Of a stretch of 64,000 bases of DNA, positions 1 through 49,361 are shown in pieces; positions within the stretch are counted from its first letter, which is position 1, and each line of letters begins with the position of its first letter. The notes under the pieces are model-generated. The model had not been told where the DNA came from, searched no databases, and worked only from the letters and a program-made list of their open reading frames with translations. Origin of the DNA: Candidatus Omnitrophota bacterium (lineage in GTDB: Bacteria; Omnitrophota; Gorgyraeia; Zapsychrales; JAKLDJ01); contig JAKLDJ010000001.1 in assembly GCA_022703585.1 (NCBI GenBank), positions 374,891 to 438,890 on the forward strand. The letters are read 5' to 3'. The translations under genes were made by a program, and so were the position numbers.

Positions 1-3000
1 AGAATAAATGTGGCTTGAAACAAAGTGGTGAGTGAGCAAAGCGAGTCGAACCACAGCGGCAGGATTGACGGCAAGCAGGCGCGCTTTGGATGTTTTAACC
101 GCGGCCACCGATTGCGCAACCGGAGCCGCCATAACACTGCCGGGCCTGGCGCCTTCGAAACCATTCTGCAATACTTGTTCATTTTTTCCGACCTCATCCG
201 CGTAAGCGGTACCGGCGCCAAACAGGTTATTCAGCGCACCCAGAATCATATGAACCGGCATCATCAGAGGCGCGATCGGATTGAAGCCCTTGAACTGGTT
301 CGGAACCTGCGGTGCGACCGGTAATTTCGGCGCGGGAATAGTCGTTGCCGGCGGCAGGCTATTAACTGGGACTGTCCCCGCCTCAGCCCTGTTGGACCTC
401 GTCGAGGCCGGGCCCGATTTAGCTTGGGACCTGTCCCGTACCGAGCTTCGTACCATTGAAATCATTTTAGCCAGAGCCAAAGAGGCGATGATTAAAGGAA
501 GAATGCCCGGCATGGAGGCTTGCAGATTGCTATGGTCAGCCACGGCGGCAACAGTCTTATATTCCTGCATGCGAATCTTAAGGCCGGGTAATTCCTGCGT
601 CAAGGCAATGACTTCATTGAGGACTAAGCGGGTCGCATCGACATTGCTGGCGTACCAATGAGCGTTGGTGTTTTGCCCGCGGGAAATACAGGCGAGCATT
701 TTTTCATAAGAAATCTTGTCAGCGCTGCCGTTAAGACATTCTCTGATGGCATCGTTGACATCTGTGTCTTGCCCGATATGGTAAATACCAAACGCCAACC
801 GCCAGATATCCGCGTCACTCATCCTTGAACCAATCATCTTGGATATTCTGTCGTGGATATCCTTAAGAAGCATGATCGCTACCGTTGTATTGTCTTCGGC
901 GTTAAACGGGTTACGGCTTCCCTCGAGAGATCCGAAGAATTTCTCAAAATTCCTTCCCTTAACCTGGCTTACTCCCATATCCCAGCCTGTCGATTTGCCC
1001 AAGCCTTTTCTTTCAAGAGTGAAATATCTGTTTGAATTAATGGTAATGCGGCTCTGGTCGGGTGTTTCCATCATCCAGATAGCGATGATGCCCTCGGACG
1101 GAATACCGTGGGCGCGGGCAAGGTCGGCAAACCGAACAAAGGAAAGCGTGCGGCGGGCCGCAGCCTTATCCTGGGCGGTCAAGACATAATAGAGAGTCGG
1201 ATTTTTGCGTTCCCTGTCCGTCATGCCGCGCTTAAGAGCAATCCTGGCTTGCCCAAGCGCCTGTGCCGTATTGGCATCGGAACGGCGCATCAGCTGTGCG
1301 TAGAAAACCTCCAGCCTGTCAATGGTGCCGGCATAAATCAACGTCTCTAAAAGATCGCTGATCCGTTCAGGATGATTGGCCAGATTAGCTGTAAACCTTT
1401 CTTGATCTTTCGCAACCTCGGGCCTAAGATTCCACCCGGCTACCAATTCCTCCTTCTTGCCCCGAGGCAGAAGTGTCGATAAAACCGCAATCATCGTCGA
1501 GAATGTCCGGGTGTTATTGAGTGACCCGCTGAATGAATCCAGGCGATACGCGGCCTCGGTAAGCCGGGCTTTGAAATCTGCCATGGCCTGCTCGGCCTTT
1601 TCGGCTTCTTTCCGAATCCTACTGGCTTCTTCGATTTCAACAACCTTCTTGGCAATGCCATAAACTCCGGAGCCGGCGACCGCTAATCCGGCAGCTCCTT
1701 TGACCATGAGGCTTAAGAATTCCCTGCGGGTTTGCTCTCTTTGTCCTCTGCGTACCGCCATAGCGCGAATTTGGCGTGGCGCGGATTTGCGGCGGCTGTC
1801 GACAATAATCTTGGTGATACCGGCAACGGCTGCGGCTGCGCCGATAATGCCGGTGACTAAAGCGGTCTTTTCCACCGCGATCGGATCCATATACATCGCC
1901 CCGGCAGCAGCAACGACCGGCACGGCAACCAAAGGCCACGTCTTCTTTAATGATGAAATCTGAACGGGCTTGCGGTCACGGATGTGTTTATTAAAGAAGC
2001 GAACGATGTCATAGCTCATGAATCCGAGTGCCATGACAGTAAAGGCTACCGGCGCCAAGAGGCTGAAACCGTACACGGCCTCGCCTTCGGCGAGTTTCAT
2101 CGGACGGAGGATTTGTGTAAGAGAGCGAGGCGTCGGTAATTCCACCAAATCTTCCCTGGTTCTGTTGGCAACAGCCATAAACGTCGGGTCTTTTTTCTCA
2201 AAAAGTTCAACCAGGGCAAGATAAATCGGGAGTTCGAAAACGCTGCTTTCCATAAGGCGGAGATATTGTCTCTGGATAACAAAGGTCCTGCAGGCTTCGG
2301 CTGATATGGAAGAACCGTTTCTTACCCGTTCCCTTAATTCTCTGTGATAAGGCCTCAAGGTATCAAGAATCCCGTCAAAGCCGTCCGCCAAGCGCATAAC
2401 CGACGAGACCAGCCTGAAGGATTCTGCCGGTTTAGGGGCGTGCATACTTAAGATTACCTCCTGGGCCCCTTCGGGTAAGGCAATGCCCGATACGCGCAAA
2501 AGATCAATGCTGATCTGGCCATGTTCACGGGCGCGCTCGGTGTCTACTTTCGATAAGACCTGATCATTGCCATGGACGGGATCCCCTTCCTTCCAATAGC
2601 GGCGCCTGTCACTGAATACAGTAATAAGCTCTTCATCCAACTTGCCCAGATCGTGGCTAAGGCCGACAAAGTCTGCCAAAGCAATCTGGGCTGCGCCGGC
2701 ACAAAGTTGTTTATTCTTAAGAATCTCCCTGGCGAGAAGAGTTACGGCCATCTCGTGCTCAATAACCTGCAAGGTATAGTCAACCGAATGTAAGCTTGAA
2801 TAAAAACCTGTTTTGGAAACAGGAGCCCAGAATAAAGGCGACATATTAATAACCCGGCCTAAAGAAGTTCTTAAGAGAGTTCTGTTGGCATTTTCCCTGC
2901 CTCCCCACAGCTCGTTAAAGGCCATGATAAAGAACCGCGTTCTTTCCCGGTTGGGATTTCTAAATAAATCGAGAATAAACTTGGTATTGGTTATGAGAGC

Positions 3001-6000
3001 AGTCCTGGTATTTCCCTGCCGTACAGGGTAGGTAGCACCGATATGCCTGACGGCCCACAATACCCTTTCACGGGCGGCATTGAATTCCGACAGACTAAGC
3101 TGTGCCCAATGCCCGGAAGACTCTCCTGCCTCTTCGACCCGGGCTTGTGCCGCCAGGGTAAACAGCCCCATCAAGGCCGCGAAGGGCAGAGCAACGAGAT
3201 TAAAGGCGTTAAGATTGTCCGCGGCTTGGTTAAATAATTTCCGGCTTTCATCGGCGGTCAGTTCGCCGGATTTGATTCTTTCCTGCAAGAAATTCAAGGC
3301 AATAGTGATAATGCCGGACTGAAGAACAGCTTCTTTAATTCGTTCATCCCTCCCGGATTCCTTAAGTAATTCCGCCATCCCTGCCGAGCCCGCCACCTTG
3401 TTCCCGTAAATATCACACCAGGCTTTAGGCTCGCCAAAAAGCATTACCGGATCTCTGCCTTCATACCTTCCTTTATCTTGAGACACTCCGTATTCTTTAA
3501 CAGCTTTCACATAAATTTCTACAGCTTCCGCCACAGTCATATTCCGCTGACGCTCAACCAAAGCTTGAGAAACAGGATTTAAACTAAACGGTTCTTCATT
3601 AAAATCACTCATCATTGCCCTGTAGCGCTCTTCGTAACGGGCAATATTTATTTCGACATCGCTCATTCTCCTTGCTATCGCTATCCCTGCCAGCGGCATC
3701 GACGGCCCGGCATCGACGAGATTTTTGATTACCTGAAATACGGTCGCGCGGTTATAGTAGGTCTTTCCGGTTTGCAAATTCTCGGCAATCTTTTCCACGC
3801 GCCAGCCGCCGATTTTATGCGCTAACAGCTCAAGGGCTTCTCTGGCATCGTCAATCTTCCATTCGTAGCGCGGCAGGCCGACGCTTAAGGCAATCGAACC
3901 CCGGTCGCTGATCAGCTCTAACGCATCGTACAAGATCTCCACGGCCAAGTCAGGGTAGACATCATCAATGACATTTAAAGCAACAATACCCTTGATGGTA
4001 CCCGCACCGGCCAAGAGCGCCTTGGTGGCACCGGAAAGTTCGCCGAGCCGTTCGCTGATAAATTCGATGCCTTCAACCAGGCTTATGTACTGGGCCGGTA
4101 CCAATTCGGCGCTGTGGCTGCGTGCCATTGCCGGGTTATCGCAGTTCTCATAAATCGGGTCAATGCTGATAACCCTTGCCCCAAAAGCAGCTGCCGCAAT
4201 CATCGGCTCCATAAAGTACCTGCCGCCGACAAACACCACGGTATCGCCCTCGGCAATATTCATCGTGGCCATAAGTTTTACGGCATCCTTGGCAACATTC
4301 CTCTCCCAGCCAAGCTGGGCAATGACGGAATCAGCATCCTGCGCCATGCCGAATGCGAAAACAAACGGTACGAAGCTATTGAGAGATGAAGTTTCCCCTA
4401 ACTTGATACCGCTTAACGCTGGGGTGGCCGGTAAGCTGGCGAACAGCTTTTGTGTCATCGGCATTGAGAGCTTCCCAGGAGTTTTCTTTCCCATTGCGGG
4501 AGTAAACTTGCCCGTTGTGATTGAAGATAAGGAAGAGCCGAGTTTTGCCAGTAGCCTCTTCGCGGCCGGCGCCAAAGACGCAATCGTCTCCGCTAAATTC
4601 AACAACGTGATCGAATGTAATGTGTTTGTAGTCTGTCCTGTGACTGGTGACTGGTGTCTGGTGACTGGTGTCTGGTGATCTAATGTCCATAATGCACCTC
4701 CGTGGTCCGTCCCGACGATACGTCGGGACGAGATCTCGGCGAATTTGCTTTGCAAATTCGCCGGACTTTGTTTAGGTTTTTGGTTATAGTCATTCTGTGT
4801 AGGAATATTGTGAATTCCGTTGAAGGAAGAAACAGCGTTTAAGCGAGGCTTTACGCCGGATATAAAGGAAATAAATCCAGGAATCGTTCTGGTAGGATTG
4901 CTAACAGCAGTTGCGCTCTCGTTATCCACTCCGACACCCTTGTGCGAGGAGGGGCCGGCTGATGTCGAATTGCCGTGAATACCGGTTGAATTGCCCGCGG
5001 TACGATAGATAACCCTAACCCCTGTCCTTGCTTCTCCGAGAGTGAAAATCGGCTGATACAATACCGGCATGTTGGTGGCGGGCGCAAAGTGCATCGGCAA
5101 ACCCTTACCGCCGTTAGGTGTAGGCGCCACCGGCGGCACACCGTTCGCCGGCACATTCACCGGTATGGACTTAGGTTCGGCAGGCGCTGGAGCAGGGGTT
5201 TGCTCGGCCACAACTCCCCTATCCTCTCGAATTTTCCTCAGATCCAACGACGGCAACCCGGAATGCAGACCCTCTCGATTGTGAGGCTTGACACCCATTA
5301 TTTGAGTTAAGTTCTGGAGGGCCAGAGAGACACCCATAATACCGACCATCAGATTCTGGGATGAGACCGCCGCCAGGACAAAGAGGCCGCCGCCGACCAA
5401 GCCGATGGTCTGCGTTGTCTCAAGGCTGTTTTCTTTAAAGGCGTTGACGACCGAGGCAATGAATTGAGGGAACGTATAAATAGCAACATTGATAACGAAC
5501 GCCGACCCGAAAACCGGAGGAATCATTCCGCCGGCGCCTAAGAAAATCGCGGAAGGAACCGCAAACATCGCACCTGCAAATCCGATTCTCCATAACTTGG
5601 AACCTAAGCCGGAATAATCGGTCGGCTCCAAGAATGCCTGCAGCATACGGCCGCCGTCCATCGGATGAATAGGCAAGCCGTTAAAGAACCCAAGCATGAC
5701 CGTTAAGGTACCCAATTGGGTAAAGAAGTTGAGATTTCCCAATAATTCCCTAATCCCGCTGATATCTTTCATCGCGTTATTGATTTGTCCCAGGCTGGAG
5801 GCATGCACCAGATTTTTAGAAATATAATCCCATAACTGAAAGACACTTCCGTCGTGGGCCGCGGCCGGTAAATGATTCCCAACGATAGACAGGTTGCCTG
5901 TCGCTAAAACAGCCGCGAGATAGACGGCAGGAACAAAATAGGACATGACACGTAACGCCGAAGACTTCGCCGTCAAGCGGTGAGTGGCATACATGAGAGA

Positions 6001-9000
6001 ATAGAAACCGGCCACGCCGGCCACAGCCGGGAGCAGGCCAAAACCGCTCTGCATTAAACCTATCGTAAACCAGGTCGGGCCCATCAAGAACGTATCGCCG
6101 ATGGGGCCGACGCCGGCAACCCAAAACGCCTTAGCCGGAGTCAACTCGCTTAAGCCCTTGATGGTTGCCAAACCGCCCATGGCGGTAAATTCCATTTTCG
6201 AGGTAACCTTGCCGAAGCGGGCTGCCTCGATACTATGCCGGGGTTCGTGATTGATGAAAATCGCTATGACCGGAAGCATGGCGGCAGCGATTATCCCGGG
6301 AAGAGTAGCGCCGGCGCTAAAGAAGTACGCTGAACCCGCCAGAGGAACAATCATGGTCAAGCTGCCTCTGATCTGTGTCCTGTTGGACGAAATCCGTTTC
6401 GGCAACCTGAACAGGTCATGGGTTTTAAAGGCGCTTTCTCCATATAGGGTAAATTTATCAATATTGGCAATCATGCTGTCGCTCGCATATTGTTTCAAGA
6501 GGTGGCTGGCGACAGAAAGCGCGATACCCAATGACGCCGTGATAGCCATAACCATAACCGTAACAGCAGAAATTTCGGCCCCGGCTATGACAACAGAACT
6601 TACGCCAATCGATTTCGCGATTGAACCTAAGGCGGCTACGCCCGTACCGGTCTTCGCAAATCCCCACAAGCCCATACCTAAGAGGGCATTGCCCATCTGG
6701 GTGGCGCCGTGTGTCTTCGAGGTTACTCCCATCTTCTGTCCGAAGTAACCTAAAACGCCGTAGGTTAAATGCGCCATAAAACTGCCCTTCATAAGAAGGA
6801 AGACAGCGACGGATAAATTCGGGACCGCGAGATTCCATTTGGTAACCCTGACCGGTTTACCCGGGTTGTGGGCTCTGGAAGCCTGCCAGTCGGATAAGTT
6901 AAACCAGCTCTTAAGCTGTTCATGGTTTAAATGCATGCCTTTAAAGAATTTAATGCCGCTGACTTCGCCCATGTCCGATTTGATGGTTCTCTTTTCAACG
7001 GTGCCGTCTGTCTTTTCTTTGTTAATATCCAGAGCGGCTTTTAAGTCTAACCGTTTCGCGTTCGATGAGACCGTTCCTTGCATTCTTTGCGCAACATTTC
7101 TGTCTCTGACGAGCAGGCTGCCGGCATAAGAACCGTTGACGCTAAAGATAACATTGCCGCCGTTTTTAAACGCCGCGAAGAATTCTTCTTTGTTCGGGAA
7201 CCCATAGAAGTCGACCGTCCCATCTTCTTTTTCTTTGCCGAGCAATTGGCCGTGTTCGCTTAAAACAACGGCTGCGAGATAACCGTCTTGTTCGTCCGGC
7301 GCCCTTAAATACACCAGGCTGGGGCCTTGAGAAATGTGAGCTTGCTTGATGGTAGCGCTGGTGTGGAGATCTTCGATATATTCACGGTCTTCAGCTGTTT
7401 CGTCCGCAGCAAATTTTTCGTAGGCCGCCTGGGTGGTTATATCCATCTTTCCTTTAACCTTGTAACTTTCGGGAAGATAGCCTTTTGCCTTTAAGGCATT
7501 CTGGAATTTCTGCACCCGCTCCTTCAGTGAAAGTGAGAGTACATCTAATTCGACGCGGGATACGGTATACCCGGCCATGGAAGAATCAAATTGAGCCAGG
7601 ACCTGATTGATGTCACTTTCGTTAAATTCGCTCCAAAGAATTCTTCCGGCCTCGCTCCTGCCGTCTCTGACATTGTCAAAGTGGCGCTCGATCATAGCCC
7701 TGGTGAGTTTAAGCGGCGGCATGGCCCGTTCACTGTTTCTGGAAATCCCGCTTAAATTGGCAACCAGCGTCAACAGAGAGTCGGACACCTTCTTCTCTGC
7801 CAAGGCTTCTTTGACGGCAAACAACTCTTCATTGCTTAATACCCTCACCTTATCCGCCATCCATCTTAAGCTGCTGTGCTCCAAAAAGGCCTGCTGGGAT
7901 TCTATTGACCGTTCTTTGGCTTGGCGAAATGCGATGAATTCTTCCAGGTCACGGACAATATGGTTTCTGACAAACGGCACTATAACAGCCGGATTCTTCA
8001 GCTGTTTGATCATCTTGTTAGCCAAACCGTCTTCGTCGTCTTTCTCCAGGATCTTGCCAAGGCCCTCAAAGAATTGCCTTTCACCCTGGCGGACCATCGC
8101 ATCCGTTACCTCAGAGCGTGCCTGGGACATGTCGGCGATGGCTGAAATTCTGTCCAGGCCAAAAATTTCGGCCGCGTCTTTTAAGGTGTTTAACGCACGA
8201 GCCAAACCTCTGATTTGTTCGGAATAACTCTTCTTTTGGCCCAAAGACGGGGTCATGTCGACAAAGCGTTTTGTCTGCTCAACGACATGTCTTGCCTGCC
8301 GGGTTTTAAGAATTTGCGCTTTCTCCTCGTCGGTTAAATCCGGGCCGGCATAATCCACAACCATAGAACCGTCCTGGCTGGTTATCCTCTTTAAGCCTTC
8401 GCCCGGCTCAGGAACAGCACCCAGGTGCATTGAGGACGATTTTGTTACTGCTTCGTATTGCTGCCATCCCTCAATGCTTCTGCCTTCTTTGTCCTGCATA
8501 AAGGGTAATACCTGCCTGGAGAATTCACGAACGAGACTGATACCTTTTTGGACAAAGGAAGCATCGACAGCATCCATCTTAGGCTTGACCGCCTTGAGCA
8601 TGTCACGCGCCACGGCTCTATAATGTTTGACCGTCTCTTCTAATCCTTGGGTCCTCTCACCGACCATCAAAGACAGGATTCTTGATTTGGCGCCATCATT
8701 TAAGGTGTCATTGACCCCGGGAAGCGCGAGCATGATGTTGGCTTCGTCAATATGTTGATTCTTTAAAACATCAGCTTCAAGGCCGGCGGCGTTACGGGCA
8801 TATTGCGCGTTATCTGCTGAACCCAACCTCTTTGTTTGATCGACCAAGCTTTTTGCCCTTTGATTGAGACGGGTGAGGGCAACCGGTTCCTGGCCTTGCG
8901 CGTCTTTTTCGGCAAAGATATAAATGCCTTGCTGGCCAAAGGCAGAAGTTTTTCCGCTAAAGCGCTTATCGCCTTTTTCGCAAGAAACAACGTAGACGCC

Positions 9001-12000
9001 TAAAGTCTGGCTCTTGGAAACTCCTTCTAAGAATAAGGCTATGTCGGGCCTGTTTAAAGCCATGGCCGCGCGCTGGGCGGACTCAATTAAGTCAGAGGAA
9101 GCTTCCTCTCTTTCCAGGGATCCCTTGTGGACGGCGCGAAGGATGGCTTTTTCTTCTTTGGTTGCCTTGAACCGGCCGGCAAGATCCGCGTCCGGTACTC
9201 CGATCCATATCTTGCGCAGTCTCTGCAAGAATTCATCTTGGCCGTACTGTGCCGGATCCTTGAGGGCATTCCAGAGCCGCTCCAAGCCGTCTTTCTTCTG
9301 AAGCATCTTTCCTAATCTTGTTCTTTCGGCGGGAGTAAATTCTTCTTCGATATCTTCCAGTTCCCTTGAGCTCGCCAAGTCGGTGATACTTTTCCACTTT
9401 CTCTCTTTACGTTTATTTTCTTTCTCGATATCAACCGGTATATTGCCGTCACGCAGGTTCTGGGCGGTGATAGGGCCTAAGTCGAATTTCTCATCCCTCT
9501 TGTCGGCGCGCTGCTGTAATTCCTTAAAGGCCTGGTTGGCTTTTTCATCATAGTCAAATCCGAAGAGATACGGTTTTAAGGCTTTCTCGGCTCTGGCGCG
9601 CGCCTGCCTCTCAACTTCCAATTGGTAACTTTCTTTTGACTGGCCTTTTTCCTGCACTAAGTCTTTCTTGACTTCTTTCTTAAATTTCTTAACAATCTTC
9701 CAGAGCGGGCTGTTTTTATCCGCGCTATAATTAAAGAGCGCTATCGTTATTCTTCCGTCGCTATTTCCTTTTTTGCGTAATCCCCTGGCCTGTTTCGCCA
9801 TCCAGTATTCCAAAGTCCCGCGGTAAATACCTAAGTCTGACCTGTCTTTAAGCCAGCCGCCCTTGACGTGATGAACAGCCGATAACGTCAACCGCCACAA
9901 GCCTCTGGCGGCCAAGATGCCTTCTTCCGGGCCTTTCTTGTTTTCGTAGTCGTTAGACATAAGCGTGAAGAATTTACGCAACGTCCAATTGCCTAACACC
10001 TTTTCTTGCTTAGCGGCAGGAACACTGTTTTCCAGCAAATCATACGCCTTGCCGGCTCTTTCAAAATCCTGATTAGACAACATCCCCGCTAAGGCCATAC
10101 CGTTTAAGGTGTTTTCTTTGCGGCCTTTATCGCCGAGAATAGCTTTGCCCATTTCGGCAAGTTGTTTGAAGGTGAGGTCAATCTTTTCCGCCCTTTGCGG
10201 CATTTGGTTCTTGGTTAAATTCCACAAGAGATATCCGTGGAAAGGATGGGTTTTCAATGAAGAGAACATCTTCTTGAGCGGATTCTTATGCGCGCGTAAC
10301 TCCGTAAGCCACGGTGACATGGTGTTGAAAGATTTGTTAAGCGGCGTGTAAATATAGGCCAGGGTTTTTATAACCTTGTTTCTGTTGTAGCGGGCATCGA
10401 TAACGCTGGATGAAATTGATTCCGAGTGCGCGATGGGCAAGAGGACCAAAGACGCCAGGAAACCGCCAAAATTAGGATGCTTTACGAGGAATTTAACCGC
10501 ATTACTGACAGCGGCTTTCCTAACCAGGGCAACAGTCCTATGCTCCGTATCTTCTCTTTTTTGTTTCTCGTCCTCAACATTCGTACGAAGCAATTTAGCG
10601 GCGTTAACCACGGCCGCGGAATGTTCATCGCCTTCAGGTTTTGCAACTTGATAGCGGGCGATATAACTATTCAAAGCCTCAAGGACAGCCTCTCTGTCTC
10701 TCCAGCTTCTGCCGTCGCTCTTTAAATAAATATTTAATAAATCCTCATTCCATTGGCTGTCTAAGGCGCTGCCTAAACCGGCCTCGTCGGCAACATTGCC
10801 GATAACTTCGGCCCTATGTTCACGGATGACGGTATCGATAGCGCTGTTTAAGGCAACCAGGTCCGACTGGCCTTGGGCGCTGGTTCTATTCTCGGCCTTA
10901 TAGGCCTTGAAGGTATCGCTTAATTTGCGGCCCTTCTCCGAAAGTTCAATCACGCGCCCGAAGGCATCGGTGCCGACAAATCCGTACTTGGCCGCCAGGA
11001 CAAAATTCTTAACGGTGTCGATAAATTCGCTTTGTTCGCGGGATGGTTTTTTGGAATTGTAATTTCTAAAGAGTCCGTTTTTATTTGCGTCAAACAGGGT
11101 ATTAACAAAAGCGGCGATATCGGAATCCTGCGGAAGGGTAGAAAGAACATCGCGAATAGCCTGCGGCGCTTCAATAAGGCTGGAGGCGACTTCGCTGACC
11201 TCGTCAATAGCGGCTGCCGGTGCGCCCCGGATTTGGCCCTGGCGAGCGACATCTTCGGCGGCCTGATTTTTGGTTTCGCTGGGTAAATTCGCGAGAGCGC
11301 CGAATCTTTGGTTGTAGGTATGATTTATCTGTTCCATCTCCATGTCGCTGGGGGTATGGGAAGCCCTGACGTCGGTAATCCGGCTGGTATCTTTTACGCC
11401 TGCCATTTGGCGGGCAGCCCTTAAGGAGGCTTCGAAATCTTCAATGATGCCGCGGTTTTTGGCGAACTGACGGAAGAGATCCTGCTCAACTTCGCTAAGT
11501 TTTTCAAGCTCGGATTTTAATTGAGAGCTGCCGGCAGGGAATTGTTTCTTAAGTTCTTCCCTTTGGATGTCCACCCGCACTAAAAGCCCTCTCTCCGCAG
11601 GCCCTATTCTGGCTTCATCGATATAGGCCATCATGTCTTCAGCCGGCGCACGGAAATCGTCGAATATCTTTTTGGTGCGGTCACCGGCGCGGCCGATCAA
11701 CTGAACATCGGCAACCGCCGTATGCTTGCTGCCGATCCTGACAATTCTTGCCGCATAGGCTTTTGCAGCATCTGTGGCAAGCGCCAGGAGGTTTGTACCG
11801 TCGTTTAACTTATTGACGACAACAATAAGATGCTTGCGAGAGTCTTTGCTGCTGTCTGCGTATTCGCTCCTAATAACTTTCCCGAGTTCATCCATTTTCT
11901 TGGTTTTGGCATCGCCGATAGAACCTTCGACGCCCTCGATACGGACATCGTCCCCGGCAAATGCCCCCTTTCTCTTTAATTCTGTCAATCGTGCGACTGC

Positions 12001-15000
12001 CTTATAAACATCGTCACCGCTTTGAGTCACTAAAACCGTGACCCGCACCGGCCATTCCTCAAAAACTTCATTAGGCTTATTGACTTTCACCGATTTGGAT
12101 TCTCTAAGCGCCTGCGTAATGCCCTGGATAGATGCTTCCAGGATATTGCCGGCGGAAACCCGTATATATTTAGCCATTCTTAATTTGCTATCCATATCGA
12201 CCCTGTCTAACTGCAGGTAATTTGCATTGGTAAAGCCTAAGACCTCCAACGGGCCGCGCACCGGAGTAGCCGTCATCAGCACTAACGGGGTCGGCGCATC
12301 TTTACCGACCAAGAATCTCTTGATGGAGAAGATATCGGTCATATCGCCTCTCAAGCTGAAATAATGTTTCATGGCTTCGATATTACCCGCTCCCGACTTT
12401 AAAGCCGTCAGGGCGGCTTTGACCGCGCTGCCGTGAATATGGGTGGGCCTCGAATCACCTTCCTGGGCAAGCCGATAATTGAATTTGACCAAATCTTTTT
12501 CGTTTAAGATAAATACCTTGTCGCTGCCGGTCGTGCCGCCTTCGAAACGGACAAGCACATCGCTGTCACTGTTGCTGGTGAAATACCGAATACCTTTTTC
12601 TGTTTCCATGCGATGGGAACTGCCGCTTAAAGCTTCCCTGTAACCGGTTTCGGCATCCATAATATAGGGAACCTTTTCATTCTTTTCTATAACATGGACA
12701 ATGATACCGGTAACCGTTTCACCGTTAGTGTCGGGGAATTCGAATGTCCGGTAGATGTCCCTGGTTTCTTTATCCAGCAGGCTCATGATGGCGACATCAA
12801 CCGCCTCTTCAAATTCTTCGCGGATCCATTTTTCTTCTTTCAAATTCAATCCCGGGACCAGTTTCTGCAGATGAGCCATGATTTCCTTTTTAACCTGTTC
12901 ATTAACAGCTTCTCTGGGGATCGTCGTGCCGTTGGGGTGAGTCGCCTGGCCCCAAACAATAGGTGACGGGCGGTGAGTTGAATCAAGATCAGAGCGTCTG
13001 AGCTCAACCTCTTTTATAACCTCGCGGAATAATCTCATCAAATTCCAGCCGCTCTTAAAGTTGGCATCGGTCAATTGCCGTTCAGGGTCAATGCGAATAG
13101 AATCAATAAGGCCGGGTTCGGTAACGGCAATGTGGGCATCGTCCCAGATAATCCTGTTCTTTCCGTCGTTAACCGAAGGCTTGAATGCGCTCAGATAATC
13201 CTTTGAACCTTTTATTTTTTCGGGGCTCTGGACTGCGGCAGCTGCTACGGCTTGTGTTTCGTTCGTATCGGCACTCACGGCCGCAGCTTCTTCGTTGTGG
13301 CCTTTGGCGATATTAAGGAAGGTCTGCTGAGGCATGACCACGATATCAAAGTCTTGGGTTAAATCAGCCATCTTAACTTCTCTGAGTAACGCCTTGTAGC
13401 TTCCGGCTTGCTTTGCCGTTTCCTCTGCTTCTTTCAAGGACATTTCGGCAACGCCGTCGGCGTAAGTCCAGACAGAGAAATCGTCGAGCACGATACCGAC
13501 CCTAACCGCCGGTTTTCCGTCCGCGAGTTTCACAGCGCTGACGGTTCTTAAGTAGGCGTCATAGACAGCGGCACGCGGCATGTTGGTGATGTCGGGAGCG
13601 AGGATAAGCGATTTGCTCTTGAAAGGCCGGTTTTCCAGGGCTTCCATTAACTGGAATGAAGCGCGGCCGGCTGTGGAAACAAAAGTTTTACCTCTACCGG
13701 TAGGCCACTCAATAACCACTCCGCCAAAGTTCGCGAAGACCATGCCGGTCGCTTCGATTTGTTTTGACTGAAGCTCCAGAGGCCTTTCGGAATCTTCCAT
13801 ATTGGCCCTGGCGTCACGCATGAATTTCACTAACGTTTCTTGCGTGTCATCGCTGACGATTTTTCCGATAATCGCTGATATGGATTTTTTCTCGGATTCG
13901 GGAATATTATTGTTTGTTAAGAATTGCGCCAAAGCCTGTTTCGGAGTTACGTCAGAAAATGCCGCGTAAGCAACCGCCTCACCCAAACATCTTAAAGCGT
14001 ACTGTTCTTTGTAGGTAACAAGCTGCTGCGCGGCCTCATGGATAACAGATTGGTAACCAAACGGCCGAACGGAATCTCTTTCTGCGTCCGTGCGAGTGGC
14101 TGTAAGCGCAACATCATTGCCGCGAGTATACTTCGAGGCCCGGACATCAACAGCCGGGGAGGGGATCCGACCGCGAGCCGAGCCTCTGTTACCAAATAAA
14201 CCTTTCCATAAATCTTTATCAAACAACATGCCCGGGAAAGAGTAGAGCGTGGTAGCGGAGACCTGGACACTGGCGTTGGAGGAGGGGTTTCCAACGTAGG
14301 CCAGGTCTCCATTGTTAAAAAGATTATCAGAGGCCCGGACATCAACAACCGGGGAGGCCCGTCTCGACTCGGCTGATTGTGTAAACGAGCCGAGGCGGAG
14401 GTTCCGATTGGACGCCCGGCCTTTAGAAATAATGACGGATAAATCTTGGGAATTGATGTTATTTTCAGGTAAATTGGAAGGCGTTACAGGAGTTACCAGA
14501 GACAAAGAAGCCCTGCGGGCGATTTCGGCAGAGTTTGTGTGTGCGGATTCAACCGCGAAACTATTTTCTTCTGCTTTGAAATTCCTGGTCTCTTCTACTG
14601 CATTACGAACATCTTCAGCTGACCGTGGCTTTGATGTTGCCGGCTCGGTAGCGGGCTCTTCGTTGACTTCCGTGGCTTTAGCGGTATCCCTTAATAAGAC
14701 ATCGCAGACTACTAAGGCATTACCAGCCTTTGGAAGGCCGGTGACAGGTAATGTCCTACTTAAGGAACCATTTGCCGCTAGAATGTCAAAAGAGCGAACT
14801 ACTAAGCTGTCTTCGCCATCGTTTCCGATGACCGGTCTGGCAGAACCGGAGATCTCTACTGCTTGTCCTTCTATTACCAGGCGCAGACCTCTCGCACCTT
14901 GAACTTTATCGGCTGACTGTCTACGGCTGTTTTTCTGTAAACCATTACCAGCTAAGACATTACCTATAAAGTCTGCTTCTGAGCTTTCGCTCCGTCTTGC

Positions 15001-18000
15001 TAATGCTTTGGCTATATTTGCTACCATAGCTGTGAAGGTGGAAGCACTACCAAACACCCGCACAACTAAGTCCATGGCTTTTTGTCTCGCGCTCTTATTC
15101 AACCCCGTCTGCGACACTGCGAGAGTGCCGGACGGCTTCGTGGAGTTGTCATGGATGCCGCTGGTTAATTTGCTACCGTCTTTTACTTTCAATAGAATTT
15201 CATTCTTAAATCCTTGTTGATTATTAAAGGCAATCTGCGGTGCTTTTACAATATCGGCTGAAGATGCCCCAATCCCCTGTTGATAAGCAACCACGCTCAC
15301 CGGAGCCTTGCTGCTGCCGGAACTTGAACCGTCATTCCCTGTGGGTTGCGGTGATACGGGCATGGAAACAGGCCCGGGAGCTGTCGGAGCAGGCGCTTCT
15401 TTTCTCTTCTGGCTAGGCGTATTATAAGGACTGTCGATAGGACTTTGAGGGAAATCAAACCTGGACTGACGCATTCCATTATCAGTATCGGCAAAAGCGA
15501 GCAGAGGAACATTATCAATGCCTAACCGAGGCTTCGGCATGGCTGTATTTACCCAGCGCGGTTTTGTCCCATTTAAGCTTGCTATCGGCGGCACGGCGAG
15601 AGCAGGCGGCATTGGCGCAGTCATTATTGAAGGCGGCAATATTTGAGTTTCCGGTAAAGCGTTCGGCGCCTGAGGCACAGCGACTGAACCGGATTTTAAT
15701 TCCGGCAGAGGAGGCATAGCCGATCCGGCCCTGATATCAGACAAGGGCTCCGGCTGCGATGGCTGGGCCACAGCAGAAAGATTGCTTACAGTCGGAGCCC
15801 CAATGGTCACTTGGGACGATTGGGTTAGCGGTATTTCTTCTTTAATACGATTGGCCTTTAAGGAAATGTCGCCTTGTCCATTGGCCGGCGTATCTGTACC
15901 GAAAGGAAGGTCCATCCCCAGTTTTGCCGACTCCCGTATTAATTCTGCTAAATACTTTTCTTGCGCTCGCGTAACTTCGACGTAGAACGGCGGGACGGCT
16001 CTTTGGCTGTTATTCAAGGCTGTTGAATCTTGAGATTTCCATGCAGCCTCAAATTCTTGAAGAGTCGTTGCCCAATATTTATGGATGGAATCCACATAAG
16101 GTTCATTCAGCTGGACCTGAAGTTCGGGTTGAATAAACTCCGGCCAGCTCCGGTCTGCTTGCATATCGACGATGCGCGACTGCCATCCCTTTCGCCATTC
16201 AGCGCTTAAATCAGCGGGTGCGGCCACTTTCTTTGACACAATGATCGGAACACGGTGAGGATAATTCTCAACGGCTTTCTTAAGATTATGAACGGCGTCT
16301 TCACCATAAGCCAAATAATCCATGTCAATAACCACGACGCGGGAATTCGGACCGATAGTCCGGCCGTAATTGCGAGCCACATTAACAACATCAAGATCAA
16401 TGACCCCGCGCCTGGCCATCTCAGCTCTCAAGGAAATAATATCATTCTGGAAGTCTTCAATCGCCTTATCATAATTGCGATTAACCGCCGCGCGTTCTTT
16501 TTCGGTCGTTGATTTAGCCAGAGCTGCTTCCCGCTCCTGGTTCATGCGATCTCTGAAATTCGCGAATGTCTCCACTTTTTGCTGAACAAAGACGAACGGA
16601 TATTGATGAATCTTTCTGGGCACATGGCCGCCGCGTATCATCAGTGAGACATCCTCAAGGACAATCGCTCCGGTTAGCTCAGGGCCTAGCCGGTTCTTGA
16701 TAATATCGTATCCTCTGGCAAGTTCGGGTGCTAAAATTTTCTTGCTGTAGAAGTTCAAATCCTCGTGGGGAATTTTGACAACAATATCATAATCGGGGTC
16801 AGCCAAATAGGAACTATTCCCGGGAACGGCACGGTCAATCGCGAATGCCGCAAGCGCCCCACCTTCATCCAAGTAGGTAAAGACGGGCCCCTGCTTGGTA
16901 ACCTGGTATCCTTCTTTCACTGTTTCAATCTTATACCGCACAACATCTACGGCAGCTTTCTCTAAGCCCTGGCTAATAACGGCATGGTCGAGTCCGACTT
17001 TATCTAACATCGGTTGAAAATCTTCCAGCTGGCCAAAGCGGTTTTGCCGTGCCACAATGAGACCAATCAAATCGCTGGGCCGAATATCAATACGCGTTCC
17101 GTTAATAGAAAGGTGCAGCCAAGAACTCTGCCCGTCGCCGGTTTCCTTGTTCGCCGGCAGGGCAACGTCGCCTCTGCTGTTATCAATCGTCGGGTTGGCT
17201 TCGAGAGCCTGGCGCTTGCTCGTCATAGCGATCCTGCTTGACAGGTTATCAGAGGCCTCGGTGAATGCCGGCACAGGCATTCTTTGCGCCAATATTCCCG
17301 ATAACATCCATCGCACCCTATCGACAAGAGAATCATTGTTGCCTGACGGAAGGGCCACGTACTTTTCTGCACGGGTATAATTTATTTCTGCCAGCGGCCT
17401 GCCGGTGTTTGTATTCACAGTCATCCTGCTGGAGGTGGGTTTGTTGGGAGCAGTCACCGGGCGCTGGAAGATTCTGGCTAAGGCATCGGCCATATTCTTT
17501 CCGCCATACCAGCGTTGCGCGCCCGTCGAGCAGCTATCCAGCATGACTTTCCCGTCCGCAGTAAGAACACGGCTTAACCCGGCGCGCTGTAATTTCTTAA
17601 GGACAACCGGCATCGTCAGCACGTCCGTCTCTTTGGGCCCGAACTGAATAGACCCCCTTGTCCCGTGGCCGGCGATAACAACCAGAGAGGCAGGCTGGTA
17701 TCTTGCCGGATCCTCTAAATTCGTGGCGTCTTTTAAGGCAGAAACCATCTCATCCGGAGTAGAAGCCTCATAATACAAAACACGGTAATGCTTTGTCAGC
17801 GCTGTGGCATTGGTGGGATTCAAAAGGGCATTGTTGTGATCTGATTTTGGATAGACCACAACCGCCAACGGACGCGTGTCATCCACCTTGCCGAGGCGAT
17901 GCAACAGCCTGTTTTTTACCAATTCTTGGCCGGCGTTGCCCCGAAGAGCCACTGTTCGAATAATGTTAAGATCCGGTACGCGATAGTAATTGGTCACCAT

Positions 18001-21000
18001 CTTGGGGAAGCTTTGTTCGCTGACGGGTTTTCCGGCAAGTTCGAAAATCGGAAGGGCTATTTTCTCGCGCAGATCCCTTACCATTTTCTTATCCGTCCGG
18101 CGTCCGTCTTCTTTGGCTAAATTCTCAAATTGAGCTATTAAATTTGAAATTTCTTTTTGTGCAGCCCTTATCCTGGCTGCCCGCGGCGAAGGTTCTGCCA
18201 TCGAGGGCGCTTTCAGAATAAACTGCCAGGCAGCCCTGGGAGAATAATGCCTGCCATGGCTTGCCAACTTTTCGATAACCGGCAGGGAAAGATTTTCCAT
18301 CCTAAAGGCCGGCATGTCAAAGGCGGCAAGAATTCCTGCGGCATCCATATTTCCCTTCAAGACTTCTTGCTCTAAAACAGATTTGGTTTCGGCGGCATAA
18401 TCAGGTACGGTAGCCGCTATCCAGGCAAGGGCTTTGGATACTCCCGGTTTATTGACATGATTCTTTAATACGGCAGTAGCTATCCGGGCAAGGGCCTGCG
18501 CCACTCCCGGCTTATCAAGCTCATTGGTTATTTGGACAAGGGCCCAGGGCGCTGCCGGTTGATCGATATGGCTCTTTAATACGGAATAAAGCTGTTTGGT
18601 AAACTGGGGTGTCATATCCCGGGCGGTCATAACAAAAGCCTGGGGCTTGCCCTTTTTCTTAGGTAACGCTCCGACGAGAGCTTCTGCGGCCTCCATGTTC
18701 CCTTTGACAGCTTCTTGTTTCAAAATAGATTTGGTTTCATCGGCATAATCAGGCACGACAGTGGCCATCCAGGCAAGAGCCTGAAGAACTCCCGGCCAGT
18801 CAATATTTTTCTTCAGCATAGAATAAACTTGTTTAGTAAAATACGGCGGCATATCCGTAATTGTCCTGGCAAGGGCACCGGCGGCATGCTTGTTAATAGC
18901 TATCTGACTCTCTAGCGCGGAAATAATCCGGTCGGTAATCTTCGGATTGCCACGAACCATAGCCACGAGGGCATCCGGTGTATAAATATTGTGCGGATTA
19001 TCTCTCGCGATCTCATCAAGCGTCGTAATGGCTTGCTCTGTGAACTCCGGATTCACTTTTGAGAAATCAACTAATGCCCGAGAAGTACGATACCCCGCGT
19101 TATTTTTGGCGCTCTCAATCAAGGCCGTTGCTACTTGAGGAGTTAAGCCGGGATTTGTCAACGATATCGTCCAAAGTTCCTGCATGGTCTGGGTAAAATC
19201 GGCATCGTAACTATTATCGTCACCGCTATCGGACAACATACCCTGAAGCTCTCGAATTCTATCATCGGTAACGGGCCTCGCCTGAGCCGGCTGACCGGGC
19301 ATTGGTAACGGTCGGATGCTCTTTATATTTTCAAGAGGGAAACCATAAGCTAAAGCATTATACCTGGTGTCCAGGCTAATTTTATCCCTGCCTACGACGG
19401 CCGTTTTACCATCAATAGATACTATCGTAGTTCCGGGTTCTAGCCGTGCGAGTTGTTCAGACGTAAGAAGAAGTACATCTCTACGGATGCGGGCTCCGCC
19501 GTTTAACAGAGATTCAATATTAACTGCCAAGTGCTGTTGGGGTTCTGCCTGGGCCAGCAGGCTGGTACCGGCGACTTTCGTTGTCGACGGTATCGGGCTG
19601 CGGTCGGCTTTCAGGGCAACGTCGCGATTATTATCAGCGGTCAGGTTGGTGTCGGAAACTTCCTGAAGCTTTAATTCTGCCATCGGCGCGGTGGCCATTG
19701 CCTGCACGCTGACAGGCTTTGCCATCTCGGACGTACGAACCATTTTAGAACCGGCTGCCGCTTCCATCACTTTGACGGCCGGTGCTGCGGCGGCCGACTC
19801 TATCGGGCCGGAACCAAGAAGCATTCCGCTTTGGGGTGTGTTTCTCCTGGAAAGTACTGCACGAGCTATGCGTGCGACGGCAGGCCTCGACATCACCGCA
19901 GAACTCGGGGCAAAACCAGCTCTTGTCCACCATGTCCAGTGATTCAAAAGTAAGTCGCCATTGTTCCGAATGGCCATGAACTGAGCGTTGGCTATGCGCC
20001 AAATCTCATCTTCGCTAAGTCCAGCCTTCTTAAGTTGAGGCTCTAAAGCATGTTTCACTCGGTCAGGATGAAGGGCTTTTAAATAATCCCGGACCCGTGT
20101 CTTTACTTGCGCTTGAGACAAGGCAATGGCCGGCCCTCGCGGGTCATAAATTCCGAAATAGTCGAGGATATACGGATGGAACTTCTTGTGGGTAAATGCA
20201 AACACGTTCGACAACCCATGGTCTTTGATGGCTGAAGACAATAAACCGGTACCCGTGCTCTTACGACGCAACTCCGATACTTTTATTTCCCCTTTCTTCA
20301 ATAAAAGAGCATACAGGACCCCGCTAACAAACTTTCGGTCACGCAGATATGTTTTAAGAATATCCGGCGGAACCTTTAATGCAGCCTCTAATTCTTTGAG
20401 CGTTGGGGTATCGGGATGGTCCACCAGATACGAGGTCAAGGCGCTATTAAGCGGTTGGCCTGTCCGTTTCTTGAAATCCGCCTCTGTACGAACTTGTTTG
20501 AGGAAAAGTCTGCGGTTAGCGTCCTCATTGAACACTTCGAAATACTTGCTGATTGTTGACTGACTAACGCCTTGGTTCTTCGCTATCTGCGTCTGGATGC
20601 CATCACCTTGCTTAATCCATTGCGCCATCTTATAATGGCCGGGATAATCAAACGACGGTTTATGCAACTGCCCACGGGCGCGGTCAAATTCTGCCTGACG
20701 CTGCCGCGGATCGCCGTCGATATACCGCTTTATATATCGTCTGGCTGCGGTTTCGCTAACGCCTCGGGCCTTGGCAATTTCTGCGGTACTCGCACGAGTT
20801 GAAGCAATCAGTCCGCTCATGATGCTATCGCCGGGATAACGGTCACCCTTCAAGCCAACTTCTTGTTGTCGCGCCTTTGATGCCGTAGCAACCAGAGCGG
20901 CGTATTTTCCGGTAGGATCACCGCCATTGTTGCGCAAATTTCTAACCCAGTCTACGGCCGTCGAGTAACTTACATCCGCCTCAGCGGCAAGAACGCGCAA

Positions 21001-24000
21001 ATCTCCATCGACCCTGTCTAAGGACGCACGCAGCCATTCATCGCCGCCATATTTCTTGTTTGCCGGTTCTCGCTGATTGGTGCGGTCAGCCTTTAAGGCA
21101 ATGTCGCCTGCTAACGCCGCGCTCGCCGCCAAATCACCGCCAGGCAACCGGCTTTCGCCCTTTAATAATCCACCACTTTCTAATAAACCGTCGCCGGCTA
21201 AGGATGGGACACTGTCAGCCAAAGGTGCTTCTTGTTCCAAGGCATAAAGATCGCGGCGGGTTTGGTCGGCCCTTAGAGCTTGTTCCTTCATCTGGCCCGG
21301 AACATCCTGGCCAAGGTTGCCTCTAGCCATCGGCGGCAATAACAATCCGGGAACAAAAGGAACGCTGCCGGGGAAGGATTGCTGCATCGGCGCCGGTAAG
21401 GCACCCCCGAGATTAGATGTTTCTGCCGGAATATTGGCCTGGCCTATTGCCGGAGCCGAGGGCAGGGCAAAAGTTTCTACATCAACTCTGGCTACTTCCG
21501 CGATACGCCGGGCATTTTCATCGGACGGCAATAAGTCACCTTTCCCGAAGAGAACAACGCCGCCGGAGAGAATAGTTTTAACGTCTTCACCTTTTAGTTC
21601 TTCCAGTTTGACATTACCGCTATCATCTAAAGAAACCCGCGAGAAGATATTGATCTCTCGTTGGATCGGACCTTGTTCTGTCTGGACATCGGTAAAACCT
21701 TTTTTTGCAATAAAGACATTGCGGTCATATCTTTTCTGGATACGTTCGCGGGCCGCCTGTCTTAAATCCGTATCGCGGTCGACGGGAACAAGTTGAACCG
21801 CCGGTAAGCTCGCGAGAATTGTCCGCATATCGCGCTCTATGCGAACATTTTCGGAATGGGTTCTTTTCGTATTCGCACGGCTGATGGCTTCGTGCAAGAT
21901 GGCACTGGCCATTCTTGCCTCGTACGATGCCTGGGCGAGGAGGGGTTGGCCTACCGCCTCAAAATGGGTTTTGGCATTGGCGGCTGTACGTGTGATATAG
22001 ATGTTGTCCAGATTCTTCCCTGCGCCGCCCGCATGGGCTCCCATGAGCGTATCTTCCGCTTCCATCTGATACATAAAGCGGGCCAATTCGACAGGAGTCA
22101 ACTTCTCCTGACGGTCTTGAGCTGAAAGGCTTTGCATGGCCTGCTCGCTGACAAGATTGCGGCGTAAAAGCGCCTCGGTTCTCTCAAGGATAGCGTCCTG
22201 GTCCAGCTCAGAGAGGAAGAAGATGTGCCCTCCCTTATTAGCCGGGTCAATCTGCATCTGGATGATCCTGGCTGCTTCAAGCGCTTCCTGCCTTAATTGT
22301 ACGGACTCCTGGTCATCAAGCCCTTCTAAGGCGTCAGCAACTCTGTAAGCCATTTCCAGGTCCGCTTTGGCAGCCTGCAATTCTTCAAAACCGGTTTGTC
22401 CTGCCTTAATATCCGTAGTCGCCTTTACTGAGCGGCCGGTGGTGTTGACCTCCTGGCGAATAATGCCGTTCTCGACAATCCTGCTGAAGATTTCGTCAAA
22501 TCTCCGGCTGGGGATTTCCATGGCTTTCGCAAAAGCTTCCCGGCCTACGGTAACGGAAACAATTTCTTGGCTGGCACTGCCGCCGGGCAAACCTAATCCC
22601 TTTAACAAATCGCCCCGGCCTTCGATAGTGTATTGAACAGGATCACCGACTTCTTTGGTGGCATCCGTAATCTGATAAGTTTGCTCAACGATTTTTATAT
22701 CGTCGCTAAATCCTGTAAGAAAAGGCGCGGTAAACTGATGCGTGGCCGAATCAACCGGCACCAGGGTTCCGGCATAATGAACAGCCTTGACTTTGGCCGG
22801 ATCGGCATTGCCAACATCAGCAATACTGACGACATAGCCATGCTCAGTTATTCTATCGCCTGTTTTTACGCCCAAGAGATCCTGCTCTTGTATGCCCTGA
22901 GGAAGTTCGCCGATTTCGCGGTGCAACAGACTGTGAGTTCCTGCTGTCGTATCGACGCTGTACACTTCCCGGACAGGAATCGATATTTGCGAATCATTTT
23001 CATGCGTAACGATTGCCACGCTGCCCTGCAATGAAAACCGGCTGTTGTCCTTTATGGCAGCCGTGACAAATCCGCCTTCTTGCAAAGGAACCGCGATAGC
23101 CACGGGGTTTTTATCGTTATCTTTATTATAAATAAATCCGAATTGGGGAATGAGCCCTAAGGGAACAGATCCGTTACTAGGAACGAACATCTGATTGGGT
23201 CCGAGTTGGATACCGGCACCGGGATTCTGAAGTTCGGAAGAAGGTAGCGTGCCCGGGATGACGACAAAAAACGGATTTTCACTTCTATAACTTTTTATTT
23301 CAGGGCCATTGGCGCCGTTGATTGCGGTTGTTACGATAACCTTCGGCGGCGCTCGGGAGGCTACGAGTCCCTGATCTGCGGCCACCACGGGTTTAACAAC
23401 CTCCGCAGTAACAACGCGCTCGACGAGCATCTGGCCTTCCCGGAAACCGGGAGAATACGTCGGCACCATATCTTTAGATAATCTGGCATTAACCGCCTGT
23501 TCAAATTCTTTCGGGGTTTGAGCTTCCTGGACAGATATTCCTTTAGATAAATCTCCGGACTCAGCAGTTAAGGTAATGCGGATATCCTGCTCGCCTCGCA
23601 TAATGCTTTCAACTTCTGCCCGAGTCCTGGGACTTAATTCCCTAAGTTGTTCCGGGTGCATGCGGAAATGTTCTCGGATAACTCTATTGGCCGAATTAAC
23701 GGTTTCCTCGATCGCTGATTCTATAGTTTTCTTGGCTTCTTTAGCCGGCTCAGCAAGACTGCTATGGCGAAGGGCGTGATTCGATTGCGCAATCTTATCT
23801 CTAATCTGTTGAAGTGCGCCCCGTTCCGCATCCGTTGCCGCATCGGCTTCCCATCTTTCTTGACGCATAATTCCTTGTCTTTGGCCGTACTCGAATGTGG
23901 CTTGAGCGGTTGCAGTCCGATCGAAGCTGCGCTGAACCGGGCCCTCCATGTGCTCAATATACTTTGCGGGATCCGAGAAATTAACAACATCCAACGCGAT

Positions 24001-44720: not shown

Positions 44721-44739
44721 AGCGAAACAGTAGGGGTCA

Positions 44740-45597: not shown

Positions 45598-45642
45598 AGG
45601 ATTTATTCTCTAACCAAAATTACCTTTAACAAAAATACCCCA

Positions 45643-46047
45643 TTAGTTACATTGTGGATTTGCACAAGGGGTCACGCAATACTCGTTACAATGCTCCTCG
45701 CAGCAGTCGGCATTATGTCCGCACGCCGTGTTGGGGTTAGGGCTATGACTGCCGCAAGGATTCCAATTATTATGATCCATGCAATTATGTGCGCATTGAT
45801 CGGAATAGTTCGTATGGCATTGGGGGACATACCACCTTCCCAGGTCTTCGCTCCAGATGCATTCAACCGTTTTTTTAGGGTCGTATTGCATCCCGAAACC
45901 GAAGGAATCGGCTGACGCCTTCCAGCGCCCGGCAAAACCGCGCAGGACATACTGCCGTCCGGCGACAAAAGCCGCGATCAGAATAACGATAAGCATCGTG
46001 TATTCGATCATGGAAGCGGCTCTTTTATTACCTTTACGCATCGTCAT
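45643..46047 (-). CDS. Flp-like pilin paralog with a Cys/His-rich C-terminal extension (12 Cys in the last roughly 60 aa).
   Basis: N-terminus MTMRKGNKRAASMIEYTMLIVILIAAFVAGRQYVLRGFAGRWKASADSFG parallels the xxxxEY plus hydrophobic helix plus RGIQGRWK pattern of the flp array genes. C-terminus ...CHTNYSDQCAHNCMDHNNWNPCGSHSPNPNTACGHNADCCEEHCNEYCVTPCANPQCN. The start overlaps the stop of the upstream TadG-like gene (TAATG), indicating translational coupling. Confidence 0.55.
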   Translation of the reverse strand: MTMRKGNKRAASMIEYTMLIVILIAAFVAGRQYVLRGFAGRWKASADSFGFGMQYDPKKTVECIWSEDLGRWYVPQCHTNYSDQCAHNCMDHNNWNPCGSHSPNPNTACGHNADCCEEHCNEYCVTPCANPQCN

Positions 46048-49298: not shown

Positions 49299-49361
49299 TC
49301 TTTCTCCTTGAATCTTGTTACGTCAAATTTGCCCTAACCCTTTATTTTAAAAACCTTAAAC

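Follow-up and report, generated by a model that had tools for sequence, protein, structure and literature searches.

A candidate GYP-less HD-type domain within a giant protein of Candidatus Omnitrophota

Introduction

Is there a metal-dependent phosphohydrolase inside what appears to be the longest known bacterial open reading frame (ORF)? This question is raised by a stretch of 64,000 nucleotides from a Candidatus Omnitrophota bacterium (NCBI GenBank assembly GCA_022703585.1, contig JAKLDJ010000001.1, positions 374,891 to 438,890 of the forward strand), which is called the window below. One minus-strand frame is open from 42597 to 1 (14,199 codons, zero stops) and continues past the window edge, and an initial annotation had recognized the motifs of an HD-domain phosphohydrolase in its translation at 2460-2830. 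Almost no part of the longest known bacterial ORF has an assigned function, and a catalytic module would be a small, expressible piece of it with a testable activity. In this study, we found that the segment 2374-2766 (minus strand) is probably a very diverged HD-superfamily domain, which lacks the GYP motif and is related to the HD-GYP branch. The soluble loop that carries this segment is probably, with slightly less confidence, a diverged, GYP-less phosphodiesterase module of HD type. The support for this reading is purely statistical.

An HD-like domain in a loop between two hydrophobic helices

The peptide reported by the initial annotation (SSLHSVDYTLQV...HDLGKLDEEL...EHGQISIDLL) is the exact minus-strand translation of 2460-2830. 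A reading of the same segment on the plus strand was ruled out, because stops occur throughout that frame. The hydropathy profile places the segment in a soluble loop of 355 residues, which is bounded by two hydrophobic segments (mean Kyte-Doolittle values, 2.18 and 1.99). The loop, its boundaries and the candidate ligands of a metal site are as follows.

3142..3207, minus strand: hydrophobic helix N-terminal to the loop (aa 13131-13152)
2077..3141, minus strand: soluble loop holding the HD-like domain (355 residues, aa 13153-13507; from hydropathy)
2374..2766, minus strand: HD-like core (aa 13278-13408), aligned to positions 1-114 of the 116 of the Pfam HD model
2755..2757, minus strand: H13281, the first of the putative His ligands, part of the helix IEHEMAVTLLAREIL and 34 residues ahead of the HD dyad
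2641..2655, minus strand: HDLGK (aa 13315-13319), the HD dyad with Gly-Lys, within GLSHDLGKL
2521..2523, minus strand: H13359, candidate ligand, in LSKVDTERAREHGQISIDLL
2440..2442, minus strand: H13386 in SMHAPKP, candidate ligand; hhalign sets MHAP opposite HHE
2347..2388, minus strand: ADGFDGILDTLRPY (aa 13404-13417), with the last candidate ligand D13405
2002..2076, minus strand: hydrophobic helix C-terminal to the loop (aa 13508-13532)

The H...HD...H...D arrangement that had been noticed in this segment was confirmed. It includes H13281, H13315-D13316, H13359, (H13386) and D13405, and the last of these residues (2383-2385) lies within RLADGFDGILDTLRPY. The candidate ligands are spaced as H-34-HD-44-H-27-H-19-D, and both the H...HD...D order and the spacing are typical of the HD superfamily. 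The Pfam HD alignment begins three residues N-terminal to H13281. Furthermore, His accounts for 2.5% of the loop versus 1.3% of the in-window protein, and no paralogue of the loop was found elsewhere within the in-window giant protein. As for composition, Cys is scarce in the in-window protein (13 of 14,199 residues, 0.09%).

Evidence for membership in the HD superfamily

Only one HD[ILVM]GK is found among the 14,199 in-window residues, versus 0.0097 expected, and 0.6% of 3000 shuffles contained the motif. A composite pattern with all six ligand residues, which was defined post hoc, was found in none of the 3000 shuffles. In the profile searches, Pfam HD (PF01966) was the top family in every slice of 167-355 residues, with model positions 1-114 of 116 aligned. 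We compared this match with 50 motif-preserving decoys, in which GLSHDLGKL was fixed in place and all other residues were shuffled. None of the 50 attained the real score, and only one attained E ≤ 1.

The initial annotation had taken the arrangement for the canonical signature of the HD superfamily. This holds as far as Pfam HD is the top family, aligns from end to end and is not equalled by any decoy, but the score remains below the cut-off. It had also pointed to Pfam HD and HD_5 as the models to search, and the outcome was divided: a sub-threshold match to the former, and no match at E ≤ 10 to the latter (PF13487). The case of no HD-family hit, which had been named as one half of what would count against the domain, did not arise, since the sub-threshold Pfam HD match exists. 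Compared with a generic HD domain (PF01966), the loop shares the H...HD...D pattern, the end-to-end model alignment and the helical secondary structure; it differs in its score (15-18 bits versus a cut-off of 22) and in being without detectable relatives.

Relationship to the HD-GYP branch

Two HD-GYP profiles were built, one from 118 RpfG-like sequences obtained in a bait search and the other from a broader set including PDB 4R8Z, 4MCW and 5Z7C. Only 31 and 26, respectively, of 1000 motif-preserving decoys equalled the real scores with these profiles, which speaks for the domain. An unbiased scan, in which the protein was covered by 584 natural tiles, ranked the whole loop first with both profiles. 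In addition, tiles starting past the HD motif formed the best or second-best locus of the 584. The RpfG-like profile gave them 2.8 bits versus 0.6 for the next locus, and the margin was narrow for the broader profile (4.4 versus 3.5 bits). The downstream half of the loop (aa 13321-13512), which contains no HD dipeptide, matches the HD-GYP profiles at a level equalled by 5 and 8 of 2000 shuffles (p ~0.003-0.005). The shuffles lose helical periodicity, and thus their p-values are somewhat optimistic. That a unique HDxGK and a downstream HD-GYP-like match at the expected distance occur together by chance has a probability of ~4e-5, uncorrected for other motifs that a reader could have noticed.

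HMMER aligned ADGFDGILDTLRPY to the ADVFDAL(T/S)xxR(P)Y element of both profiles. This counterpart of the C-terminal ADxFDAL(T/S)xxRPY element lies 90 residues past the HD dyad and has one extra residue; the PDB sequences 4mcw and 5z7c bear SDVFDALTSDRPYK and ADIFDALSAERPYR. Meanwhile, a comparison by eye suggests that H13359 has the same L-x10-H spacing (His 11 after Leu) as the HD-GYP element LTaeEweimktH. Judged from the sequence, two separate HD-GYP-type elements follow one another with the expected order and distance. The motif grammar of the domain appears closest to that of the HD-GYP branch, and the resemblance consists of HDxGK, Leu-x10-His and ADxFDxxxxxRPY.

The loop was compared with three solved HD-GYP examples, namely PmGH (4MCW), PA4781 (4R8Z) and V-cGAP3 (5Z7C). 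It shares with them the HDxGK dyad after a hydrophobic helix, the Leu-x10-His element, a His at the site of the HH pair and ADxFDxxxxxRPY with the final Asp, and the order and spacing of these elements are colinear. However, the defining motif of the HD-GYP family, HHExxDGxGYP, is missing, and SMHAPKP is found in its place. The loop is without the DGxGYP loop (~10 residues fewer), MH replaces HH, and there is a Gln where a Glu is expected four residues before the first His. Furthermore, it is flanked by membrane helices in a giant protein and is predicted to lie outside the cytoplasm, unlike the solved examples. The ligand spacings of PmGH are reportedly ~32, 29, 26 and 29, and with the same ligand numbering the distance from the HD to the Asp is ~84 residues in PmGH versus 90 in the loop. 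These differences would fit a 15-residue insertion after HDLGK together with the absence of the ~10-residue DGxGYP loop.

Evidence against an HD domain and the chance explanation

Besides the missing HD_5 match, a number of results weigh against the presence of an HD domain. The Pfam HD match has 15.2-17.9 bits (E 0.004-0.03), which is under the gathering cut-off of 22, and it is lost in slices of 500, 1199 and 4199 residues. We also searched 141 overlapping 200-residue tiles of the in-window protein against Pfam, and 45 families matched at E ≤ 0.05. Among them, CARD_2, ResIII, USP7_C2 and TraM, which are likely spurious, match other tiles as strongly as HD matches the loop. Thus, the raw Pfam HD score is within the noise zone for this giant protein. 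Against the two HD-GYP profiles, the loop attains merely 2.4 and 4.5 bits in absolute terms, which is not significant, and these profiles were informative only in comparison with decoys and tiles. In addition, hhalign gave a probability of 0.8-0.9% against the HD-GYP alignment. The initial annotation had proposed to look for GYP 60-80 residues downstream of the HD motif, and this expectation failed: neither GYP nor HHE occurs there or in the rest of the 14,199 in-window residues, and G[YFW]P is absent from the loop. Moreover, both supporting signals are short motifs, and the decoys with which they were compared do not retain helical periodicity.

The homology searches gave no support either. 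Neither the loop nor the 2250 residues around it had a homologue in a word-indexed protein search, phmmer found none in PDB, and scans of genomes, metagenomes and viral contigs found none. NCBIfam and PHROGs gave no relevant match. An exhaustive phmmer search against 1.84 billion representatives returned two matches only, both to tandem-repeat proteins, and both are spurious because the score is summed over 7-14 tandem repeats. However, it should be noted that the protein libraries return no self-match for the giant protein, though the organism is found on at least 18 public contigs, and that its precomputed Pfam field holds no entry. Evidently, these libraries lack giant proteins. Thus, the orphan status of the loop is partly a database artefact, and the results of "no homologue" are unreliable. 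The same may apply elsewhere, and library searches may falsely imply that there are no homologues where giant proteins are missing from the libraries.

Two AlphaFold2 single-sequence models are of low confidence (pLDDT 35.7 and 38.8). They are helical throughout, which is compatible with an HD fold but is weak and non-discriminating. A Foldseek search of the low-confidence model against PDB found nothing at E ≤ 0.001, and its long-helix matches are meaningless. The homology and the fold that we infer for the domain are based on the motifs and the profile comparisons.

Among the alternatives, the one that survives best is that the motifs arose by chance. The loop would then be a helical spacer or another fold, HDLGK and ADGFD...RPY would be accidental, and no phosphohydrolase would be present. 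This explanation accords with profile scores that are all sub-threshold, with the equally strong matches of unrelated families in the tile census, with motif-only decoys that reach E 1e-5 against Cas3 models, and with the lack of a confident AlphaFold2 fold and of homologues. We nevertheless regard it as rather unlikely, because the joint chance given above (0.0097 for HDxGK; p 0.003-0.005 for the downstream match) is small, even if it still awaits correction for other possible motifs, and the loop is the top locus of 584 tiles for both HD-GYP profiles. Thus, we prefer the reading of a very diverged HD-superfamily domain.

Membrane topology and neighbouring modules

On which side of the membrane would this HD-like domain lie? 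Three features of the surrounding protein are needed here.

5626..6279, minus strand: M50 (site-2 protease) domain, ~1000 residues N-terminal of the HD-like domain (PF02163, 30.9 bits versus 27.2 when sliced)
1654..1740, minus strand: internal twin-arginine-type signal-like element TRREFLSLMVKGAAGLAVAGSG (aa 13620-13648)
718..1140, minus strand: weak lytic-transglycosylase-like region (aa ~13820-13960; SLT_2 with 12.9 bits over 24 residues, far under the cut-off)

The domain is followed by a series of loops, whose Lys/Arg counts are given in parentheses: 26 residues (7), 12 residues (1), 27 residues (10), a region of 388 residues that includes the weak SLT_2 match, and 57 residues (8). According to the positive-inside rule, this alternation of Lys/Arg places the loops in, out, in, out and in, and thus the HD-like loop would be non-cytoplasmic. 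In this arrangement, the HD-like loop is likely to face the same side as the transglycosylase-like region, although topology predictions for the Omnitrophota giant proteins are unreliable (West-Roberts et al. 2023). A non-cytoplasmic placement would argue against cytoplasmic turnover of c-di-GMP and favour an external phosphodiester substrate.

The location also bears on the domain itself. To our knowledge, no HD domain outside the cytoplasm has been described. Thus, the predicted location either lowers the prior of an HD domain, which adds to the points against it, or is wrong. A useful comparison is given by the PgpH-type 7TMR-HD c-di-AMP phosphodiesterases, which have a cytoplasmic HD domain and match their family model strongly. 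Like them, the loop would be a phosphodiesterase of HD type that is attached directly to a polytopic membrane region; it differs from them in having no 7TMR-HD match and in its opposite predicted side.

The M50 domain bears the sole HExxH of the in-window protein (HEPRH, aa 12117, 6235-6249) and FNGLPIHPMDGG (aa 12305, 5650-5685). A score at the gathering level and the HExxH and NxxPxxxxDG motifs, both in membrane helices, are those of the Peptidase M50 family. This domain is a candidate for self-processing of the giant protein. No [ST]RRxFL other than that of the element TRREFLSLMVKGAAGLAVAGSG occurs in the 14,199 residues. This element represents a textbook twin-arginine pattern, with which the 27-residue loop carrying 10 Lys/Arg ends, and it points to a module that is fused or exported separately. 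The lytic-transglycosylase reading of 718-1140 was made by eye (MMETPDQS, GVSQVKG and IYHIGQD) and is unconfirmed.

Comparison with a canonical HD-GYP enzyme and with Cas3

A second alternative is that the loop is a genuine HD-GYP domain that faces the cytoplasm and degrades c-di-GMP, acting together with PilZ genes and GGDEF domains such as those reported at other giant-gene loci. The C-terminal ADxFDxxxxxRPY element and the L-x10-H element would be expected of such an enzyme. Furthermore, GGDEF is found in many giant proteins, and PilZ genes lie directly downstream of most giant genes (West-Roberts et al. 2023). However, GGDEF, like GYP and HHE, is absent from the 14,199 in-window residues, HD_5 does not match, the hhalign probability is less than 1%, and the positive-inside pattern sets the loop on the non-cytoplasmic side. 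These results make a canonical HD-GYP enzyme very improbable.

The initial annotation had also mentioned a nuclease as a possible activity, and this suggestion now rests on Cas3-type matches: PADLOC Cas3fv (18.9 bits, E 8e-5), PADLOC Cas3 (13.1 bits) and Pfam Cas3_HD (PF18019, 13.5 bits). All of them share their first residue with the Pfam HD match, and they span only the N-terminal part of the domain. When 50 motif-only decoys were searched against PADLOC, the best E values for two Cas3 models were 1.2e-5 and 5.9e-5, which beat the real 8e-5. Thus, the Cas3 matches are driven by the motif alone. No helicase motif was found near the loop, and the sole Walker A-like string of the in-window protein is at aa 1734. 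Cas3 HD nucleases show a weak likeness over the region of the first His and HDxGK; they differ in having a helicase partner, which is lacking here, and the C-terminal element of the loop resembles HD-GYP instead. A Cas3-like HD nuclease that cuts nucleic acid, such as prey DNA, was therefore rejected on the decoy control and the lack of a helicase, and we give it the least credence of all.

Possible function of the HD-like domain

If the loop is a diverged HD domain, as we prefer, all six residues of the binuclear site are intact and the Lys of HDxGK is present, and a metal-dependent phosphoester or phosphodiester hydrolase would be expected. In the proposed mechanism, the domain would be part of a membrane-embedded module, in which it sits between two transmembrane helices with the M50 domain on its N-terminal side and the Tat-like and transglycosylase-like elements on its C-terminal side. 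H13281, H13315, D13316, H13359, H13386 and D13405 would bind one or two divalent metals (Fe or Mn), like the ligands of other HD phosphohydrolases, while K13319 of HDLGK would touch the phosphate, and the site would cleave a phosphoester or phosphodiester bond. The substrate would more likely be an external or prey-derived phosphodiester (a nucleotide, a nucleic acid or an envelope polymer) than cytoplasmic c-di-GMP. We infer the metal binding, the activity, the location and the substrate from the residues and from the predicted topology.

A bolder proposal can be built on these elements. The domain would be an active extracytoplasmic HD phosphodiesterase, and the ORF would encode a polyprotein of separately targeted modules: M50 or C39 would cut the chain, the TRREFL signal would export the next module, and the HD module would attack prey phosphodiesters beside the transglycosylase-like module. 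We consider the whole of this proposal quite unlikely at present. Nevertheless, the HD-like loop, the adjoining M50 domain and the internal Tat-like signal lend support to a view of giant proteins as chains of modules that are processed separately, and a polyprotein, if true, would be direct evidence on the processing of giant proteins.

The two possible orientations would have different meanings. An outward-facing domain would extend the HD phosphohydrolases to a compartment in which, as far as we know, none has been described, and it would be the first extracytoplasmic HD enzyme. With an inward-facing domain, the c-di-GMP theme reported for the giant-gene loci (GGDEF domains and PilZ genes) would gain a degradative side.

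The giant ORF and its identity

The N-terminal features of the giant protein are the following.

1..42558, minus strand: 5′ part of the giant ORF (14,186 codons from a likely ATG at 42558)
42367-42423, minus strand: signal-anchor helix directly before the C39 domain (from hydropathy)
41704..41949, minus strand: N-terminal C39 peptidase-like domain (PF03412, 32.3 bits versus a cut-off of 22; E 3e-10 in tiles)

A GA-rich stretch lies 5′ of the likely ATG. An exact-protein look-up through the neighbouring T2SSF gene showed that the giant gene is present as a single call of 85,803 residues in NODE_2 of ENA ERZ761563 (1.17 Mb) and in NCBI GCA_035453785.1 (1.61 Mb). The longest known bacterial ORF has 257,412 bp, or 85,804 codons, and comes from an Omnitrophota bacterium in wastewater (West-Roberts et al. 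2023). The in-window giant ORF thus appears to be this record ORF. The in-window part represents the first 16.5% of the 85,803-residue protein, and HDLGK consequently lies at ~15.5% of the full length. The initial annotation had located the domain near the C-terminal part of the in-window protein; this is true for the window, but the true C-terminus is far away.

Giant loci of Omnitrophota are recognized by an ORF of >30,000 aa, an N-terminal signal anchor with C39 and a preceding secretion-pilus cluster that includes a Rotamase_2 PPIase and RcpC, and all three were found here. In common with the giant proteins described by West-Roberts et al. (2023), the protein has a signal anchor and C39 at the N-terminus, many membrane helices and an upstream cluster in which a Rotamase_2 PPIase and RcpC are accompanied by GspD/E/F-like genes. 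Neither an HD nor an M50 domain is mentioned in the main texts of West-Roberts et al. (2023) and of a 2026 Omnitrophota preprint. The giant gene and its type of locus are already known; the HD-like domain within this protein would be a novel form of an established enzyme fold, which is plausible but unproven.

Some other matches were found in the giant protein. A cluster of HTH families (HTH_23, HTH_28 and HTH_29) matches 20707-20808 on the minus strand (aa ~7264-7297), with E down to 1.4e-8 in 200-residue tiles. This is an odd site for a DNA-binding motif, and it lies in a long stretch of the giant protein without membrane helices. DUF4347 matches 17431-17703 on the minus strand (aa ~8299-8389; E 1.6e-5 in tiles), and Rib, aRib and RibLong give weak matches elsewhere.

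The upstream secretion-pilus cluster

Upstream of the giant gene, the same strand carries a cluster of secretion genes.

43722..63842, minus strand: Tad/type II-like secretion-pilus cluster

In the window, this cluster includes a Rotamase_2 PPIase, RcpC, a secretin-TonB_C fusion, a ParA/MinD-T2SSE fusion and two T2SSF genes. Genes for a Flp pilin and for a class III signal peptide protein were seen only in the gene calls of the public contigs that match. A similar synteny, with a pilus cluster upstream, has been reported for Omnitrophota giant genes (West-Roberts et al. 2023). The TadA-like ATPase has its closest relatives, within a species-level collection of genomes, in Omnitrophota metagenome-assembled genomes (64% and 52% identity). 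Rfam found no family in the whole window, and a tRNA scan found no tRNA.

Two gene fusions of the cluster (58192-62014, minus strand) are unusual. One joins a ParA/MinD-type (TadZ-like) ATPase and a T2SSE (TadA/CpaF-like) ATPase in 719 aa, and the other is a secretin with a C-terminal TonB_C in 553 aa. In addition, an AT-rich gap of 1.16 kb (42559-43721) lies between the last T2SSF gene and the start of the giant gene, with a GC of 0.40 versus 0.51 in the gene. Two small ORFs on the reverse strand are called in this gap in some public assemblies.

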